Shown here: one piece after another, positions 20,257 through 26,730 of the stretch
Numbering within the stretch: position 1 is the first letter of the stretch
Layout: each line of letters opens with the position of its first letter
Origin: an uncultured virus (IMG/VR IMGVR_UViG_3300038318_000112)
Taxonomy: Duplodnaviria > Heunggongvirae > Uroviricota > Caudoviricetes
Reading direction: 5' to 3' (one strand)
Length of the DNA stretch: 64,000 nt
Virus record (IMG/VR): IMGVR_UViG_3300038318_000112
Span: 1-64,000 of that record
The notes under the pieces: model-generated
What the model was told of the DNA's origin: nothing
Seen by the model: the letters and a program-made list of their open reading frames with translations, nothing else
The model's database searches: none
Program-made: the position numbers and the translations under genes

Positions 20257-21210
20257 TCACCTCATACAATTAACTAGCATATAGTCAAGTGCTAAATCTG
20301 CATCCAATCTTCCCGCCTTGATCCCGGATTCTACTGATTGACATATACCTATATTTCTAACCAGTTCCTTTATTGAGTATCCCCCAATATTTTTCTTTGC
20401 TCCATATAGTTGCCCTTTAGTTAATCCAGTTCTTTGCTCAGCGTTTGATTTATCTTTCCCCAATCCTTTATATGCTAAAACATTGGTGAACGAACTGAAT
20501 AGTAAAGATTCAATTCCAAATACTGATTCATTCTTTTGCTTGATCCCATTCAATAATTTTCCTGCTCGATCTGGATATCCAGCAACCACTGCATTTATAA
20601 AATCAAATGTATTATCTGATTCCTGTCCATTCGTTATCTGCCCGGAATGATATAGAAGCTTAAAAGCATCATTCCCAGTGATATTTTTTACGGCTCTCAA
20701 ATTATTTATCTTATCCATTTCAAGCAGTATTCTACCGTAATCATTATTACAAATCTGAATTAATTTCTTAGCATTAGGATCATCCAAATCTATTTGATCA
20801 TCACCGGTTATGATATATTTCTGTAAGACTTCCGGAGTTAATTTTTCAAACTCAACAGTTTGATTTTGCTTGAAAAACTTGGTAATTTTATTTATCTTAG
20901 TGGTTCTAAAAATCAGCACATGATTCAACTTTGAAAATGTCTGCTCCATCTGCCTCCAACTTTTTTCTGCCTTCATGAAATCTTGATCGGATGAAACCAC
21001 ATAAAGATTCTTTGTAGCAGTAAGATTCTTTTTCCTGCATACTCGGTTTACTTCAGCTACAGTTTCATATTCATATCTTGTATAACCTATATCAACAAGA
21101 TGATCTAAATATTTATCTAACACCAACTGCTCTTCTCCGAACCAAACCATGAAGTGCGGAAAGGATTCATTAGACATCATCTTTATAAGATCCATTAATT
21201 TAATCTTCAT
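20257..21210 (-). CDS. holA: Clamp loader delta subunit (HolA-like)
   Basis: FGEE, C.NDY..I..E.DK, IK.G motifs; adjacent to delta' and gamma. Confidence 0.75.
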   Translation of the reverse strand: MKIKLMDLIKMMSNESFPHFMVWFGEEQLVLDKYLDHLVDIGYTRYEYETVAEVNRVCRKKNLTATKNLYVVSSDQDFMKAEKSWRQMEQTFSKLNHVLIFRTTKINKITKFFKQNQTVEFEKLTPEVLQKYIITGDDQIDLDDPNAKKLIQICNNDYGRILLEMDKINNLRAVKNITGNDAFKLLYHSGQITNGQESDNTFDFINAVVAGYPDRAGKLLNGIKQKNESVFGIESLLFSSFTNVLAYKGLGKDKSNAEQRTGLTKGQLYGAKKNIGGYSIKELVRNIGICQSVESGIKAGRLDADLALDYMLVNCMR

Positions 21211-21994
21211 TTTTTCTCGCCCTCAATATGCTAAACATCATCACCTGTAGCATCTGTAAACTATTACTCTTAGCACCTAAATAAGCACAACCATGAATAT
21301 ATTCCTTAAGTGTTGCTTCACTCAGAATGTCAAAATCCATCAGATATTCCTCGGACATCCATCTTGTCACTAACATTATATCAGTATCATCAATTCCACT
21401 CAATTCAAACTCTCTAAGAATCTTAATAATTGCAACACCCGATCCATCCTGGACTGCTTTACATAAATCCTCAGCACACTTTCTCGCCTTTATTACTTTT
21501 TCTTTATCTACCATCTTGATCAATCCCGGAGTATCGCATACCCTCAGTATATCAGGATCAGTTGTGAAGAACTTTAATTCATCCTTAGTATATGGTCGCA
21601 TAGTTATAGTGGTGGATCGACTTTGAATTGTTGGAAGTATTCTTGCAAATGATTTATTTTTTACTATCAGTGCAAAATAAACATTATTTGGAGGTTCCTC
21701 AATAACCTTTAATAGTGCATTTTCTGCTGCCGCAGTCATTTCCTGTATTTCATCAAATATAAATAATGTCGGGGTAGTTATGGTATATGCTAAATTAATA
21801 CATTCCCTAACCTCCTGAATACTGGTACCAAATATGATCAATGCTAAATTGGCATCCAATGAGATTTTCCTACACATGGTTTTTCTACCACTTCCAAGCT
21901 CCCCAGATATAATTAAAGTTCTGGGTAATGTATTATTACTTATAAAACTATCAATATTTCTCTGTACATATTCTTGACCAATTATATTAAGCAT
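21200..21994 (-). CDS. holB: Clamp loader delta' subunit (HolB-like)
   Basis: G..GSGRKT, AAENALLKVIEEPP, ILPTIQSR. Confidence 0.8.
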   Translation of the reverse strand: MLNIIGQEYVQRNIDSFISNNTLPRTLIISGELGSGRKTMCRKISLDANLALIIFGTSIQEVRECINLAYTITTPTLFIFDEIQEMTAAAENALLKVIEEPPNNVYFALIVKNKSFARILPTIQSRSTTITMRPYTKDELKFFTTDPDILRVCDTPGLIKMVDKEKVIKARKCAEDLCKAVQDGSGVAIIKILREFELSGIDDTDIMLVTRWMSEEYLMDFDILSEATLKEYIHGCAYLGAKSNSLQMLQVMMFSILRARKNED

Positions 21995-24065
21995 CTATCT
22001 TTCCTTTCGTGTAAATCATAAATGATAACTCAACTATAGTTTTTACATCCCCGCTCCATTTAATCTCAGGAAGAAGTTTAAATATCATTTCAGAAACATC
22101 GAATAATCCATCACAAGCAATATCATTTATCTTTGCCAGATTCTCTTCAGTTGGGGGAATATCCAAATCCGATTTAACAGTATCATGGAATAAATAATAT
22201 TTTTCACAATCCAGCAAGAATCTTGCATAGTCGTTAAGAAATAATTTTAAATCTTTTCCAGAGTTATATATTCGATCAATAATCAAGCAAGCTCTTTTAT
22301 CCTGCTCTAGCAATCTATGAGTTAAATCAAAATATACATTTATGTCCTCTGCTCCCAAAACTTCAAGAACCTTATTCAAATCAAGTTCAGGATATATTGA
22401 AAGACATTTATCAAGAAGTGTAATTGCATCTCTCATTCCACCTTTTGCCATTCTTGTAAGATAATCAAGGGATTCTTTAGATGCAATTACACCCTCTTGA
22501 TTTTTAATATATTCCAATCTGCTATGTATTATATCACTATCAATTTTGCTAAAATTAAACCTTTGTACTCGGGATAATATTGTTGCAGGTATCTTTTGTG
22601 GATCAGTTGTGCAAAGAATAAATATAGAAAATGCTGGAGGTTCTTCCAGTAGCTTCAACATTGCCTGCCATGCCCCGTTAGAAAGTGAATGACAGTTGTG
22701 AACTAATGCTCCATTTGCAAAATATGAATGGTGATTGTCAACTTCTATATCATACATTTCTACATATTCTCCATATAAGATTTCACTTGAGAAACCACAT
22801 CTGAACAATTCATCATTATATCCTCGTTTGTAAACCTCAACACTTTCCACCCTATTGAGTTTAGAAATTGAGTTTTCTTCAAATCCTTTACTATACAACT
22901 TTTCGTTCTGTGTCCTTTCCCATCCACCTCTATCGCCAGCTTTATCGTAGGATAAGCAAGGTCTACTTTGTAACAGGTAGGATATAGATGTTCCTTTCTT
23001 TGGCAATTCGTTTTTATCGGATATTCTAATATTGGTGCTTGATTCAGTTCGTTGTATAATTTCATTTGAGGAGTTGTATATTGACCATTGCCACCCCTCT
23101 GTGCGTTCCAGATTCCCCAAGTACCATTCGATTTCCTTGTTTCTATCATCTTCTCTATATTCTGTGAATCGTACATCGGGTTTTGTGTTAGCATACGTTG
23201 ACTTGATTTCTCTCTCAACATCTTTCCATATTCTGTTTGCCGAAATACTTGTTTTTCCTGTATAGAAATCAATTCGTTCTTGCACTCGTCTGAACAAGTC
23301 TTTCTTTGTTTGCAAGGTATCGTCTTGAATTGCTTTCCACAAATCACACAATACTGAACAACCATATTCTCGGCTGATTTCTTTCTTTTCTCCTGTGTCT
23401 GTGAAACAACACAACATTCGTGACAGCAATACTTCGCTACCTTTCGTCTGTTTGAAAATGTCTTTCCACAAGTTACGCAAATATGTTGGTGCATAAACAA
23501 TATCTCCTTCTCTTAAATTCTGTGCTTCAACCCAACCATAATTTGTAAAATATAAATGGTCAACGGTTGTAAATGTTTTTACACCATCTATTGTAACACA
23601 ACATAATCTATCTGTAAACACGCTGTTCTTAAATAAGTGTGTCACAGTACCTATACCAGACATATTACAAACTTTATCTCCAACTTTAATATCTTTTATT
23701 GGGATTGCACCTGATGGAGTTGTTATAAGTGTACTACCCTGAAAGCATTCATCTACAATATATATCTTATATTTACTATCAAGAGATTTCTTTTTACTAT
23801 CCCCAATAACTTTTCTGATATTATCCACGCCACTATTACTTGCGGCATCAATCTCAATGGGATTTCCTTTCCCTTCATTGATCATGCTGGCAAAGATTCT
23901 CGCTACAGTGGTTTTACCACAACCAGCAGGGCCGGTAAATAAATAAGCGTGCTGAAAACTTTTATCCCTAATCTGATTCTGTAGTATTGCTGATATTATT
24001 TCCTGCCCGCATAAATCCTCAAATGTCTTCGGACGGTACGTTACTGCTAATGATTTTTTTGCCAT
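21987..24065 (-). CDS. dnaX: Clamp loader gamma/tau subunit with intein
   Basis: YRP.TF, GPAGCGKTT, EIDAAS, DE|CH, LK.LEEPP, TILSR, GGMRDA; 341 aa after splicing. Confidence 0.93.
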   Translation of the reverse strand: MAKKSLAVTYRPKTFEDLCGQEIISAILQNQIRDKSFQHAYLFTGPAGCGKTTVARIFASMINEGKGNPIEIDAASNSGVDNIRKVIGDSKKKSLDSKYKIYIVDECFQGSTLITTPSGAIPIKDIKVGDKVCNMSGIGTVTHLFKNSVFTDRLCCVTIDGVKTFTTVDHLYFTNYGWVEAQNLREGDIVYAPTYLRNLWKDIFKQTKGSEVLLSRMLCCFTDTGEKKEISREYGCSVLCDLWKAIQDDTLQTKKDLFRRVQERIDFYTGKTSISANRIWKDVEREIKSTYANTKPDVRFTEYREDDRNKEIEWYLGNLERTEGWQWSIYNSSNEIIQRTESSTNIRISDKNELPKKGTSISYLLQSRPCLSYDKAGDRGGWERTQNEKLYSKGFEENSISKLNRVESVEVYKRGYNDELFRCGFSSEILYGEYVEMYDIEVDNHHSYFANGALVHNCHSLSNGAWQAMLKLLEEPPAFSIFILCTTDPQKIPATILSRVQRFNFSKIDSDIIHSRLEYIKNQEGVIASKESLDYLTRMAKGGMRDAITLLDKCLSIYPELDLNKVLEVLGAEDINVYFDLTHRLLEQDKRACLIIDRIYNSGKDLKLFLNDYARFLLDCEKYYLFHDTVKSDLDIPPTEENLAKINDIACDGLFDVSEMIFKLLPEIKWSGDVKTIVELSFMIYTKGKIDA
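22695..23747 (-). mobile_element. Class 1 intein (351 aa) in DnaX Walker B
   Basis: Starts CFQGSTLI; block B TVDHLY; ends MYDIEV..HHSYFANGALVHN, followed by Cys+1. Confidence 0.93.
22760..23494 (-). CDS. Nested +1-frame endonuclease: two Zn fingers plus Vsr/DUF559 (EDxHD-like) nuclease
   Basis: CxxC...CxxxC twice; KVDLAYP..KLAIEVDG..H...D..K..FL..IGWKVLRF; AAGGAG 9 nt before ATG 23494. Confidence 0.85.
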   Translation of the reverse strand: MHQHICVTCGKTFSNRRKVAKYCCHECCVVSQTQEKRKKSAENMVVQYCVICGKQFKTIPCKQRKTCSDECKNELISIQEKQVFRQTEYGKMLREKSSQRMLTQNPMYDSQNIEKMIETRKSNGTWGIWNAQRGGNGQYTTPQMKLYNELNQAPILEYPIKTNCQRKEHLYPTCYKVDLAYPTIKLAIEVDGKGHRTKSCIVKDLKKTQFLNSIGWKVLRFTNEDIMMNCSDVVSQVKSYMENM

Positions 24066-24407
24066 TTAAAATCCTCCTAATTCTTCAAAATAATCAACAA
24101 GTTCTTTCATAAGGCTTTCAGATATAACATAATAATTTTGTCCATTCGGGGCAAACGTAAATGCTAAAACTGCTTCTAAACAACCTTGTTCAAATGCTTG
24201 TTGCCTTACTTTTGCTATCCAATCCTTCTTGATCGAGAAAGATTCTTTAGCGGTGGTGGGTGTTTTTGCTTCAATTAAGAAATCATTTCTTATTTTTACA
24301 TCCCCTCCGCTAAACTTTGTTCCTCCGGAATTGGGAGTTATATTACCTCCCAAAACTTTTGCAATTTCTTTTTCCTGATTACTGCTAAAATCTCTTGTGC
24401 TATTCAT
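24066..24407 (-). CDS. PD-(D/E)XK nuclease, Holliday junction resolvase-like
   Basis: QEK..A, SG....GDV, IEAK. Confidence 0.7.
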   Translation of the reverse strand: MNSTRDFSSNQEKEIAKVLGGNITPNSGGTKFSGGDVKIRNDFLIEAKTPTTAKESFSIKKDWIAKVRQQAFEQGCLEAVLAFTFAPNGQNYYVISESLMKELVDYFEELGGF

Positions 24408-24510
24408 GTAACTGAGTCACCTCCCCATTTTTATTAACCTAAATCTTATCGGTACTGCATCTCTTTTAAACTTTTCCATTTTAAATAATTCTTTCATCTT
24501 ATTTCTCCTA

Positions 24511-24690
24511 TTATAATATGTCTAATATATAATCCATCTCTAATCCTAAATTTGATGCTATAATATCTTCTGCTTCTTCTATATCATAATTACAATCATC
24601 TAATTCTTGTCTTGTCTGAATTAATAAATCTTCTGCTTCCTCTTGTGTCATTGAATTTCTCTGCATTAAAATTTCTACTGCTTTGTTCAT
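24511..24690 (-). CDS. Small acidic protein (59 aa)
   Basis: Read by hand: MNKAVEILMQRNSMTQEEAE...LGLEMDYILDIL. Confidence 0.65.
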   Translation of the reverse strand: MNKAVEILMQRNSMTQEEAEDLLIQTRQELDDCNYDIEEAEDIIASNLGLEMDYILDIL

Positions 24691-24691
24691 T

Positions 24692-25231
24692 TTAATTTTC
24701 CTCCTTAAATTCTTTTATTGCTGATTTAATAACCCATCCCGTCCACTTAATGTTGCATATAGTATTTCTTATTTCTTCTATATGTTCCTGCAACTCTTCT
24801 TCTGTATTATAAGGGTTAAGATAATAATGCCCACCACATTCTGGACCTACTCCATATATCTGAGAAATCGGATTAGTAAGAGGTCTGCCACAGCACATAC
24901 AAGTAGTTGTCTTTTCCGCCTCTGCATGGAGTTCCATATACACCATTCCTCTTGTTTCCTTTATTGCTGTTCCTCGCATGATCACAAAAGGCATCGGTAT
25001 ATCATTATTCCACCTGCTTTGAAAATCAAATGTTGAAGTAGACGGTTTAGTCATATATCGCTTCACTTGGATCCTATAATCCTTTCCCATTTCCATAAAT
25101 ACGTCCGGGTCAGATTTTTCAACCATTCCTGTTTCCTTCTGAACGGGTTCCAGTACAAATCTAAATTCCCGCCCAATTACAAAATCCTGATCTTGAAATC
25201 TATTTATCTGCTTGAATATCTGTTCCATCAT
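24692..25231 (-). CDS. DUF6011-like zinc-binding protein
   Basis: CMCCGRPLTNPIS..YGVGPEC. Confidence 0.7.
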   Translation of the reverse strand: MMEQIFKQINRFQDQDFVIGREFRFVLEPVQKETGMVEKSDPDVFMEMGKDYRIQVKRYMTKPSTSTFDFQSRWNNDIPMPFVIMRGTAIKETRGMVYMELHAEAEKTTTCMCCGRPLTNPISQIYGVGPECGGHYYLNPYNTEEELQEHIEEIRNTICNIKWTGWVIKSAIKEFKEEN

Positions 25232-25475
25232 TTTCCTCGATTCTTGATACTTGAGAACTTGCAAATAAGTTTGCTTTTGCTAAATAAAAATGCTCTCTTT
25301 CTTCTTCATCATCCTTCTTGGATTTATTTGACATTCTCCAAAGTGATGTCTTTATGCAAGCGTGTTCTCCCTTATTGACTTTGAACCCCATCTTCTTCCA
25401 AACCTGATAAGTATGAACTGGTTCATCAATTCCATTTAATGCTTTCTCTTGCATTATGATCTGTTCATTAGTCAT
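25200..25475 (-). CDS. ArdC N-terminal-like ssDNA-binding small protein
   Basis: HTYQVWKKMGFKVNKGEHA...LF..SQV. Confidence 0.6.
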   Translation of the reverse strand: MTNEQIIMQEKALNGIDEPVHTYQVWKKMGFKVNKGEHACIKTSLWRMSNKSKKDDEEEREHFYLAKANLFASSQVSRIEENDGTDIQADK

Positions 25476-25542
25476 ATCATTTGCTCCTTGAATTATTTGC
25501 ACCAACTTCTTATTTCTTCATTTGTTTTTATGTTTATCTTTA

Positions 25543-25580
25543 TTACAATTATATTGTAACACATAATATATAAATGTCAA
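25543..25580 (-). promoter_or_regulatory. Repeated strong promoter, copy 2
   Basis: Same core sequence as 20055-20092. Confidence 0.8.
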
Positions 25581-25612
25581 TAGTTTTTGACAAAGTTTTT
25601 CAAGTTTTTTTT

Positions 25613-25646
25613 AAATAAAATTGCCCGAGATTCAACCCGGGCAATT
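25613..25646 (-). terminator. Intrinsic terminator after clamp gene
   Basis: AATTGCCCG/CGGGCAATT stem followed by T-rich tail on minus strand. Confidence 0.7.
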
Positions 25647-25656
25647 AATCAATTAA

Positions 25657-26730
25657 TTATTCTTCATCTTCAAGCAACGCCAATATCTGAGTAACCCCAT
25701 TTGATTTTATTTTCAGTGCGTTTTCATCACCGTACCAAATCTCTACTACTTCATCATTCATTGCTTCCACTTGAGTTTTTAGCATTTCAGAATCTGCAAA
25801 GCACATAAAGTTTGTTGGATTTTCTGAACCTACAAAATTAATTGTTTCAATACCAGAAACCTTTTTATTCTGTATGATTACTGATCCGCTCTTAGCAAAA
25901 TTAAGAGTGATCCCATTCTGATCATACGGATCAATAAATAATGATATTCTATCAATTACTGCAAGTAATATATCTTTTGGGATTTTACACATTGAAGGGA
26001 ATTTAGTATCGAGATACGCTGATATTTCAGTTGCTGGAAAGTCTGAAATACCATCCATAATCTCACTATAAATTACTACATTATCAGTGCTAAATGCAAG
26101 TTTATTTTGATCCCGATATACTTTTATATCCTCCTGATTATTCAATACTAAGAGATTAATCAACTGAGCCGGAAGTAATACTGGTTCATCTAATATGGTG
26201 GCATCATTAAAAGTAATGGTCATTGAATCAGATGTTATGGTTTTATCATTTATATAGTATCCAGTTAATGAAGGCACTTCAAATGTCTTCGCAAGTGCCG
26301 GTTTATTTATATCAAATATATTTTTTACATCTAAAAGTTTAATGTTTGATTTTGCTTCGTACTTTTCTATGTCGGGAACTGGAAACTTTACATTGCCTGA
26401 TTCATCGGCAATAAGGGGTATCTTATATGTCCCATCTGCATCTATTTCTAGCTCACTATCAGATACAAATAATTTTATTTTATCCTGGGTAATCTTTGAA
26501 ATTAGTTTGCTAAATAAATCAGCATCAACAACCACATCAAAATCTTTATCATCCGGTTCTACCTTTATCTCATATAAGATTGTATTGGTCATATCTGTGG
26601 CGACTAAATCAAGTGTATTTTCTTTGTGCTTTAGTCCAATCATTGAAGTAAGTGGGATCAATTTATTCATTCCCGCTCCTTTGATCACCGTACTTGTGCC
26701 TGCCTGCAATTCAATTCTTAATAATTCCAT
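25657..26730 (-). CDS. dnaN: Sliding clamp (DNA Pol III beta-like)
   Basis: 357 aa, three-domain size; L.L.ATD motif and repeated FP motifs; near clamp loader genes. Confidence 0.75.
   Translation of the reverse strand: MELLRIELQAGTSTVIKGAGMNKLIPLTSMIGLKHKENTLDLVATDMTNTILYEIKVEPDDKDFDVVVDADLFSKLISKITQDKIKLFVSDSELEIDADGTYKIPLIADESGNVKFPVPDIEKYEAKSNIKLLDVKNIFDINKPALAKTFEVPSLTGYYINDKTITSDSMTITFNDATILDEPVLLPAQLINLLVLNNQEDIKVYRDQNKLAFSTDNVVIYSEIMDGISDFPATEISAYLDTKFPSMCKIPKDILLAVIDRISLFIDPYDQNGITLNFAKSGSVIIQNKKVSGIETINFVGSENPTNFMCFADSEMLKTQVEAMNDEVVEIWYGDENALKIKSNGVTQILALLEDEE

Follow-up and report, generated by a model that had tools for sequence, protein, structure and literature searches.

What encodes the homing endonuclease of an intein whose own reading frame holds no recognisable nuclease between its splicing blocks? 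The question is raised by a clamp-loader gene of an uncultured virus of the class Caudoviricetes, carried on a stretch of 64,000 nucleotides (nt), hereafter the window, that spans positions 1 to 64,000 of IMG/VR record IMGVR_UViG_3300038318_000112 and belongs to a virus record of 85 kb with a completeness rating of 100%. A preliminary description of the window had proposed that the nuclease is a separate gene, read in the +1 frame from its own ATG and Shine-Dalgarno (SD) motif, within an intein whose host frame (frame 0) stays open; the analysis reported here confirms that layout and supports the proposal well at the sequence level. The locus is very probably a composite selfish element, in which a class-1 intein occupies the Walker B codons of the clamp loader (DE|CH, the bar marking the insertion point) and the homing endonuclease is a separate +1 gene in the intein interior. 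The +1 product is a conserved, confidently folding protein made of two zinc ribbons, a linker and a Vsr/EDxHD nuclease domain; the frame-0 interior is modelled with low confidence, as a hydrophilic linker that joins two HINT halves of well-defined fold; stops in the host frame are far scarcer than chance would allow, and related clamp-loader and helicase genes show this arrangement again at an identical motif. The parts of the element are listed below, with the evidence for each in brackets (pLDDT, predicted local distance difference test).

21987-24065, minus strand: clamp-loader (DnaX-like, AAA+) gene with intein, 692 codons (Pfam and PHROG matches)
23748-24065, minus strand: N-extein, residues 1-106, its last residues being Walker B ...YIVDE (alignment to the FA88 clamp loader)
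22695-23747, minus strand: class-1 intein of 351 residues, from Cys1 to His-Asn and followed by Cys+1 (host residues 107-457)
23478-23747, minus strand: N-terminal splicing (HINT) region, intein residues 1-90 (AlphaFold2 pLDDT 93-98)
22857-23465, minus strand: frame-0 filler, intein residues ~95-297, an open frame without a confident fold (pLDDT, no family match)
22695-22856, minus strand: C-terminal splicing region, intein residues 298-351, including MYDIEV and the terminal VHN (pLDDT 93-98)
22760-23494 (stop included), minus strand: nested +1-frame gene for a 244-residue homing-endonuclease-like protein (Pfam DUF559, 42 homologues, fold model)
23504-23509, minus strand: SD-like AAGGAG, 9 nt upstream of ATG 23494 (sequence reading)
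23411-23479, minus strand: zinc ribbon 1, nested protein residues 6-28, CxxC...CCxxCC (sequence; modelled beta hairpin and helix, pLDDT >90)
23276-23353, minus strand: zinc ribbon 2, nested protein residues 48-73 (weak zinc-finger/treble-clef Pfam matches; model)
22763-23047, minus strand: Vsr/EDxHD-type nuclease domain, nested protein residues 150-244 (invariant columns; matches to 3hrl and 3r3p)
22760-22856, minus strand: overlap of the nuclease C-terminal part (from LGWKVLRF) with folded intein strands (RVESVEVYKRG...), constraint having been measured on the 12-codon GWKVLRF block only

The 692-residue open reading frame (ORF) has the family matches of a clamp loader, to Pfam DNA_pol3_delta2 (E 1.6e-23) and to PHROG 5846 'clamp loader' (E 1.5e-76). 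A blastn comparison with phage records returned distant extein matches only and supplied the intein-less allele of Clostridium phage vB_CtyS-FA88, with residues 3-105 of which the N-extein shares 62% identity. The FA88 clamp loader is uninterrupted at the site (IIDECHML); the window protein aligns with it through ...IVDEC and picks up again at CHSLS. Because the alignment stops at ...IIDEC and resumes at CHML, the insert lies between the Asp-Glu of Walker B and the following Cys-His. The insert carries the expected intein motifs, namely Cys1, TVDH (H64), MYDIEV, the terminal VHN (H350-N351) and Cys+1; among 46 related inteins C1, H350 and N351 never vary and H64 is conserved in at least 90%, and the MYDIEV motif is conserved in relatives. 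The intein frame scores 37.0 bits against Pfam Hint/Intein_splicing (cut-off 35.8), and the AlphaFold2 model of frame 0, built from the 46-sequence alignment, reaches pLDDT 93-98 at residues 1-90 and 301-351; the beta-rich N and C parts of the model, together with the Intein_splicing score, indicate a HINT fold. These intact motifs and the essential role of the host gene suggest that the intein is spliced. The interior presents a different picture: in the same model pLDDT is 36-60 at residues ~101-290, no Pfam or PHROG family above threshold matches the frame-0 interior, and the only further Pfam hit of the intein frame is PLA1 at 23 bits (cut-off 27), a sub-threshold, chance-level match.

It is the +1 frame of this same interior that encodes the nuclease. 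The listed nested ORF occupies 22760-23500 on the minus strand and opens with TTG at 23500, whereas the ATG at 23494 gives a protein of 244 residues; the ATG is the likelier start because the TTG stands only 3 nt from the SD-like motif. That motif falls within the intein codons for R-E-G-D-I-V, and the nested stop TAG (22762-22760) directly precedes the MYDIEV codons, just as the preliminary description had read both from the sequence. The nested ORF matches Pfam DUF559 with an E value of 1.2e-13 (51.3 bits; cut-off 20.6), and its protein has 42 homologues in a large protein collection, several of which end ...KCTI or ...NCMI, i.e., with the +1 reading of block F (EMYDIE). In an alignment of 22 sequences D178, E189, D191, H195 and D204 are invariant; in 3r3p, an N and a W stand opposite this family's D191 and H195. 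The AlphaFold model based on that alignment has a mean pLDDT of 90.6 and consists of two beta-hairpin/helix zinc-ribbon units, a helical linker and an alpha/beta nuclease domain. Its best solved Foldseek match is I-Bth0305I (3r3p; E 8.5e-4, template-modelling (TM) score 0.72 on target), with the DUF559 protein 3hrl at TM 0.79 on target and 1vsr lower; a profile of the nuclease family finds 3hrl with E 8.3e-13 and 3r3p with E 0.0015 among solved structures. The predicted structure of the nested protein is accordingly of the Vsr type in its nuclease domain. The N-terminal half is made of two Cys4-type zinc ribbons and the helical linker, not of a NUMOD or helix-turn-helix module, and matches the zinc-finger region of PHROG 1271 'HNH endonuclease'. 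The 351-residue intein, the reading from ATG 23494 to TAG 22760, the zinc fingers and the Vsr/DUF559 nuclease had all been described beforehand, and ORFs, Pfam and model agree with them.

How are two frames kept open over the same DNA? For a stop to appear in the host frame, a codon of the nuclease must end in T and the next one must start with AA, AG or GA. The number of stops to be expected at such risk sites was calculated from the third-position T frequency of each amino acid at the family's non-risk sites. In the window there are 77 risk sites, at which 20.5 host-frame stops are expected and 0 seen (P of an open frame 6.7e-14); in 71 unique related nested genes, 5950 risk sites should yield 1422 stops and yield 1. 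Since any codon with a final T can be exchanged for a synonymous one, the nuclease protein need not change for the host frame to remain open, and we infer that this cheapness is the reason for the +1 offset. The filler that results shows no selection that we can see beyond staying open: its Kyte-Doolittle value is -1.08, compared with -1.16 for random synonymous recoding with stop avoidance, these simulations give no sign of selection for hydrophilicity, and hydrophobic residues are slightly in excess (0.25 vs 0.23 simulated), which may reflect codon usage. The preliminary account of the frame-0 middle as an overprinted filler, unstructured and kept free of stops, is borne out.

Which of the two frames is selected can be read from codon positions. 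Across 2485 pairs of nested genes, differences in the nuclease frame are most frequent at position 3, fewer at position 1 and fewest at position 2; for pairs of 50-70% identity they amount to 0.53, 0.36 and 0.31 per site at positions 3, 1 and 2, respectively. Amino-acid identity is higher in the nuclease frame in all divergence classes below 90% identity (for example 0.53 vs 0.33 in the host frame), whereas in the N-extein, the N-terminal splicing region and the C-extein the substitution pattern follows the host frame instead. The nuclease frame is thus under purifying selection across the family, as had been anticipated. The converse, that frame 0 encodes the selected and folded domain (a novel in-frame intein insert) and that the +1 ORF is its by-product, is scarcely credible. 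Frame 0 is indeed open, and the 46-intein alignment does show conserved patches, but these lie opposite conserved nuclease motifs. Given the order of positions in the nuclease frame, the host third position is the least variable in the overlap and the host first position the most variable, the reverse of what a coding frame shows; moreover, the low interior pLDDT was obtained despite 46 aligned sequences, no Pfam or PHROG family is found, and host-frame constraint is seen only in the 12-codon GWKVLRF block near the 3' end. The preliminary description had itself named a selected frame-0 fold as grounds for abandoning its proposal; the pLDDT of 36-60 and the reversed codon-position pattern point the other way.

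That 12-codon block deserves separate treatment. The nested gene had been said to fill the endonuclease slot exactly, a statement that needs correction, as its last ~30 codons overlap the folded C-terminal splicing region (intein residues 298-329, pLDDT 95-97). Third-position differences in the GWKVLRF block are 0.37, compared with 0.53-0.59 in the catalytic blocks lying over the filler, and its third bases are nearly fixed, preserving host-frame R-V-E-S-V/I-E-I/V-Y; in the next 10 codons the value is 0.62, with no reduction. Since the third positions are constrained and the block sits in the confidently folded C-terminal part of the intein, about 12 codons are selected in both frames. The expectation that frame 0 would show only stop avoidance therefore holds for the filler, where the recoding simulations support it, and fails for the 3' overlap, where the GWKVLRF block is constrained in both frames.

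The arrangement is by no means confined to the window. A scan of IMG/VR with the single protein found no relative and an alignment-based scan was needed; the latter gave at least 407 confirmed relatives, the best 80 of which were examined, and a scan of GTDB with one genome per species gave 150, again with the best 80 examined. The nuclease gene is nested in +1 in 78 of the 80 IMG/VR loci; there the host frame, open over 470-1914 codons, passes through the entire nuclease gene without a stop, and the third frame is open for at most 90 codons. Their 72 unique host spans comprise 45 clamp loaders, 25 superfamily 2 (SF2) helicases (ResIII/DEAD or SNF2) and 2 others; the junctions read ...DE|CF...VHN|CH, a few having EE, VSN or Ser+1, and at the nucleotide level GAYGAR|TGYCAY. 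In GTDB, 49 of the 80 loci are nested in +1 (34 of 36 among full-length matches); the 31 others include the short DUF559 genes found in rhizobia and their relatives, and these act as a control. Carriers are metagenome bins of many phyla as well as isolates, e.g., Longilinea arvoryzae and Azospirillum canadense; the hosts, scanned in 48 cases, include 8 clamp loaders, 17 SF2 helicases and one UvrD-like protein. Relatives at E <= 1e-10 also occur in 40 GenBank records of cultured phages (37 of Vibrio, 2 of Corynebacterium, 1 of Pseudomonas); among the 30 matches listed, the sole annotated feature underneath is a single gene (helicase, P-loop NTPase or coil containing protein). Two of these records were opened, those of Pseudomonas phage MR14 and Vibrio phage 1.088.O; in both, the nuclease gene lies in +1 inside a long annotated helicase coding sequence and is itself unannotated.

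The two IMG/VR exceptions, L047 and L072, show other states of the family. At L047 (1651-3792) the clamp loader is 'fractured' by a single host-frame stop inside the nested gene: the N part, of 319 residues, ends in the filler, the C part starts at a filler ATG and the endonuclease gene spans both. The locus may represent a split intein or a pseudogene, or else an error in the reads. At L072 (2495-4763) a free-standing endonuclease ORF of 213 residues runs 35 nt into the start of an intein-less SF2 (DEAH) helicase gene whose Walker B reads LIIDEAH; this may be a free-standing relative beside the type of gene that nested forms invade.

All 71 unique nested genes have an ATG 2-43 codons (median 6) before the first CxxC, L074 having been excluded as it has no start codon ahead of that motif, and an SD-like motif (GGAG, GAGG or AGGA at -18 to -5) precedes 43 of the 71, compared with 12.4% of other ATG triplets (p 1e-21). 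These starts bear on the possibility that the nuclease is made by a programmed +1 ribosomal frameshift, yielding a fusion of N-extein, N-terminal intein part and nuclease. Such a mechanism would agree with two frames that share a strand and an offset that is always +1, and one database protein, P0043, is a fusion of exactly this kind; it is nevertheless very unlikely. Besides the ATGs ahead of the first zinc ribbon and the SD-like motifs, a stop closes the nuclease frame a few codons upstream of the ATG in most loci, and P0043 is a single sequence (one 2860-nt contig) whose N-terminus matches L013 and which terminates at the stop of the nuclease, features that a 1-nt indel or an error in the read would produce. 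P0043 was also the one match when longer proteins with an in-frame nuclease were sought; as it is a frame-shifted fusion, that search is otherwise a blank and weak evidence.

In-frame nucleases would matter for an artefact already envisaged in the preliminary description, in which compensating assembly indels moved an ordinary in-frame endonuclease out of frame. The likely source run contains an exact match to this stretch, and contigs from three other samples (animal gut or faeces, sludge), of 1138, 847 and 721 nt, cover the region with 45, 15 and 11 substitutions. Because these contigs carry no gaps, the objection falls away; in addition, the same +1 offset is present in the 78 IMG/VR and 49 GTDB loci from unrelated assemblies and in the two cultured-phage genomes, and an in-frame domain would not leave frame 0 open by chance. 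Nothing was found in favour of an artefact of this kind, which is next to impossible.

Against the reading of the locus as a composite element with a nested, working endonuclease gene weigh several points of sampling and of recent variation. Only the best 80 matches per collection were covered, and at least two of the GTDB loci, L088 and L101, lie on contigs that also supplied IMG/VR loci (L015 and L003, respectively); the uniformity of the junctions is partly built in, because the search patterns required D/E-D/E-C and H-N-C/S/T. By the simple pattern used, 28 of the 71 relatives have no SD-like motif, and translation of the +1 gene is predicted from its ATG, its SD-like motif and its conservation. 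More pointedly, in near-identical relatives of the window (96-98% identity) overlap changes are mostly nonsynonymous in both frames; among these, the variant from run X5 differs from the window in the overlap by 12 nonsynonymous and 4 synonymous changes in the nuclease frame, and likewise in the host frame, compared with 3 nonsynonymous and 10 synonymous changes in its host-only flanks. Because of this excess the nuclease of the window lineage could be drifting, the close variants from public runs having too few changes to tell which frame was recently selected.

These changes give substance to a less flattering view of the locus, namely that the architecture of the family is real and the nested gene in the window phage a decaying relic, with only the host frame kept since the clamp loader is essential. 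Among the contigs of the three other samples, nonsynonymous changes in the nuclease frame account for 12 of the 16 codons that differ in X5, for all 7 in X3 and for 4 of 6 in X2. This fits the idea of a homing cycle in which endonucleases decay after fixation, as discussed in the Gogarten-group preprints cited below. Yet the ORF is intact, with ATG and SD-like motif; the window protein, itself one of the 22 aligned rows, carries all 23 invariant columns; its fold is modelled confidently; and 0 of 11 amino-acid changes in X5 fall on invariant or nearly invariant columns, although with such small numbers chance would give this about 1 time in 5. A relic is, on balance, improbable, and the composite element with a functional nested gene is preferred.

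Under this preferred reading, ribosomes in frame 0 would make the precursor, from which the intein with its linker would be spliced out to restore the DECH Walker B, and other ribosomes would start at the internal SD and ATG to make a 28-kDa nuclease. During co-infection the nuclease would cut intein-less alleles near GAYGAR|TGYCAY, a target suggested by the junction nucleotides, and repair would then copy the whole element into the cut allele.

How old is the association? The nuclease of clamp-hosted L020 is 55-61% identical to those of helicase-hosted L029 and L024, and the last 40 intein residues are 70-75% identical; this nuclease identity exceeds that of the median clamp-to-clamp pair (43%), whereas the C-exteins of L020 and L029, the pair that can be scored, are ~23% alike. 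The pattern is consistent with a unit that has passed from one ATPase gene to another where both contain DE|CH. A broader proposal, which could as easily prove wrong as right, is that the zinc-ribbon/EDxHD endonuclease and the HINT domain have long evolved together as a single unit, instead of the endonuclease having recently invaded a mini-intein. That unit would be in part a true double code, with LGWKVLRF and the RVESVEIY strand sharing bases. By homing to the DE|CH codons of Walker B it would pass from one ATPase gene to another, unrelated one (AAA+ clamp loaders, ResIII/DEAD and SNF2 helicases, perhaps a UvrD-like helicase). Should this proposal be true, nesting in +1 would be the rule for this endonuclease family, in phages as in bacteria, rather than a rarity, and most copies would be unannotated.

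The preliminary description had regarded the architecture as undescribed, which does not stand. Later preprints credit Gorbalenya 1998 with endonuclease genes in another frame or strand of an intein, and preprints of 2025-26 describe them. Phillips, DeSimone and Gogarten (bioRxiv 10.64898/2026.09.14.751524) report a dnaX intein of cyanobacteria in which a '+2 ORF' encodes a LAGLIDADG enzyme, the in-frame interior is disordered and omega depends on the frame; Novikova 2016 (PMC4760082) places the cyanobacterial dnaX intein immediately after Walker B. The window intein resembles it in the host protein family, in the position just past Walker B, in a host frame that is open over an unstructured interior and in a separate overlapping endonuclease ORF with SD-like motifs and frame-dependent selection. 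The cyanobacterial enzyme is, however, a LAGLIDADG protein in +2 on chromosomes, whereas here a zinc-ribbon Vsr/EDxHD enzyme is encoded in +1 in a phage, with relatives also in helicases.

Gosselin, Arsenault and Gogarten (bioRxiv 10.1101/2025.01.02.630785) describe actinophage inteins with antisense LAGLIDADG, antisense Vsr-like and frame-3 endonuclease VII-like genes; such layouts are called rare there (63 of 784 inteins), and Vsr-like enzymes are said to be otherwise known only with split inteins. Shared with the window are a contiguous intein, a separate endonuclease ORF between the splicing blocks and, in one class, a Vsr-like enzyme with EDxHD affinity (3R3P). Those Vsr-like genes are antisense, and the same-strand case is endonuclease VII-like in frame 3, whereas the window gene is on the same strand in +1; the actinophage hosts are DNA polymerase, minor capsid, terminase and thymidylate synthase genes, whereas here the sites are Walker B motifs and the nested form makes up most of the sampled family. 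In the fractured genes of Dassa et al. 2009 (PMC2677866), Vsr-like endonuclease genes lie between split-intein halves in phage replication genes, and the 3' end of the endonuclease overlaps the C-terminal intein part by 6-69 bp. The nuclease is of the same broad Vsr-like kind and the setting is again phage replication genes; their host is divided into two ORFs, unlike the continuous host frame of the window, the relative L047 being fractured.

The prototype EDxHD homing endonuclease is I-Bth0305I (Taylor et al. 2011, PMC3239194; PDB 3r3p), which likewise has its DNA-binding part N-terminal and its nuclease C-terminal. It belongs to a recA group I intron and has NUMOD/helix-turn-helix elements and no zinc, in contrast to the intein-borne enzyme with two zinc ribbons described here, whose nuclease domain is closer by sequence to Pfam DUF559 (3hrl, E 8.3e-13) than to I-Bth0305I. 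Arsenault, Gosselin and Gogarten 2025 (PMC11855218) describe a ShiLan-type hidden HNH endonuclease in phage methylase genes, also out of frame, with zinc fingers and in an insert open in the host frame, but there the insert has no splicing domain, the enzyme is an HNH protein and the frame is the third. A full-text literature search found no description of a same-strand +1 Vsr/EDxHD gene in a contiguous intein; the supplements of two preprints, which lie outside that search, may list such cases. The window layout is therefore a variant of out-of-frame intein endonucleases already described and not a new kind of system. Beyond the literature found are the abundance of the family with its uniform +1 phase and the short stretch of true double coding.

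These features change how common such endonucleases appear: called rare in the preprints, out-of-frame nesting is found in +1 in most sampled members of this one family, in phages and in many bacterial phyla. The cultured-phage records opened annotate the host gene only, and because of this, intein surveys that follow the host frame would score such inteins as endonuclease-less or as carrying an unknown insert. Cultured carriers of the nested gene do exist. The occurrence of free-standing, fractured and nested states within one family bears on how endonucleases enter inteins, and the locus offers a clean natural case of overprinting, in which the cost of the second frame is purely synonymous save for the short doubly selected stretch.

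Some further observations concern the relatives. The host of L122 has a UvrD-like C-terminal domain, and further host types occur among L122, L048, L115, L120, L124, L126 and L129-L131; one such group has the junction LDE|CF...VHN|SSILK (Ser+1) and no host-protein Pfam match at the cut-off, some of its members matching the intein splicing domain only. Each of the helicase hosts L055, L076 and L068 also contains, upstream of the nested-endonuclease intein, another intein of the ordinary type whose LAGLIDADG or Hom_end domain is in frame. In X3 and X5 the nested stop TAG (window 22760-22762) reads CAG, and the endonuclease is 5 codons longer, ending at a TAG inside the YDIE codons of block F, as it does in many homologues (…KCTI, …NCMI). 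Protein P0001 (240 residues, one 1450-nt contig) starts with ~100 residues resembling a FolD-type dehydrogenase (PF00763), then continues as a 93%-identical copy of the C-terminal half of the window endonuclease; it is either a chimeric assembly or a real insertion, and its C-terminus, ...SCVENMQKCTI, agrees with the variants in runs X3 and X5.

Around the element, the intein-bearing clamp loader belongs to a minus-strand replication module (window 20257-26730) that also contains the following genes, and a promoter-like site lies within the intein upstream of the nested gene.

25657-26730, minus strand: sliding-clamp-like processivity factor (replication module)
24066-24407, minus strand: Holliday junction resolvase (replication module)
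21200-21994 and 20257-21210, minus strand: two further clamp-loader subunits (replication module)
23590-23618, minus strand: promoter-like site, TTTACA-17-TACAAT with TG, ~96 nt upstream of the nested ATG (consensus match only)

Promoter-like matches in this region number 25, compared with 13.2 in shuffles.

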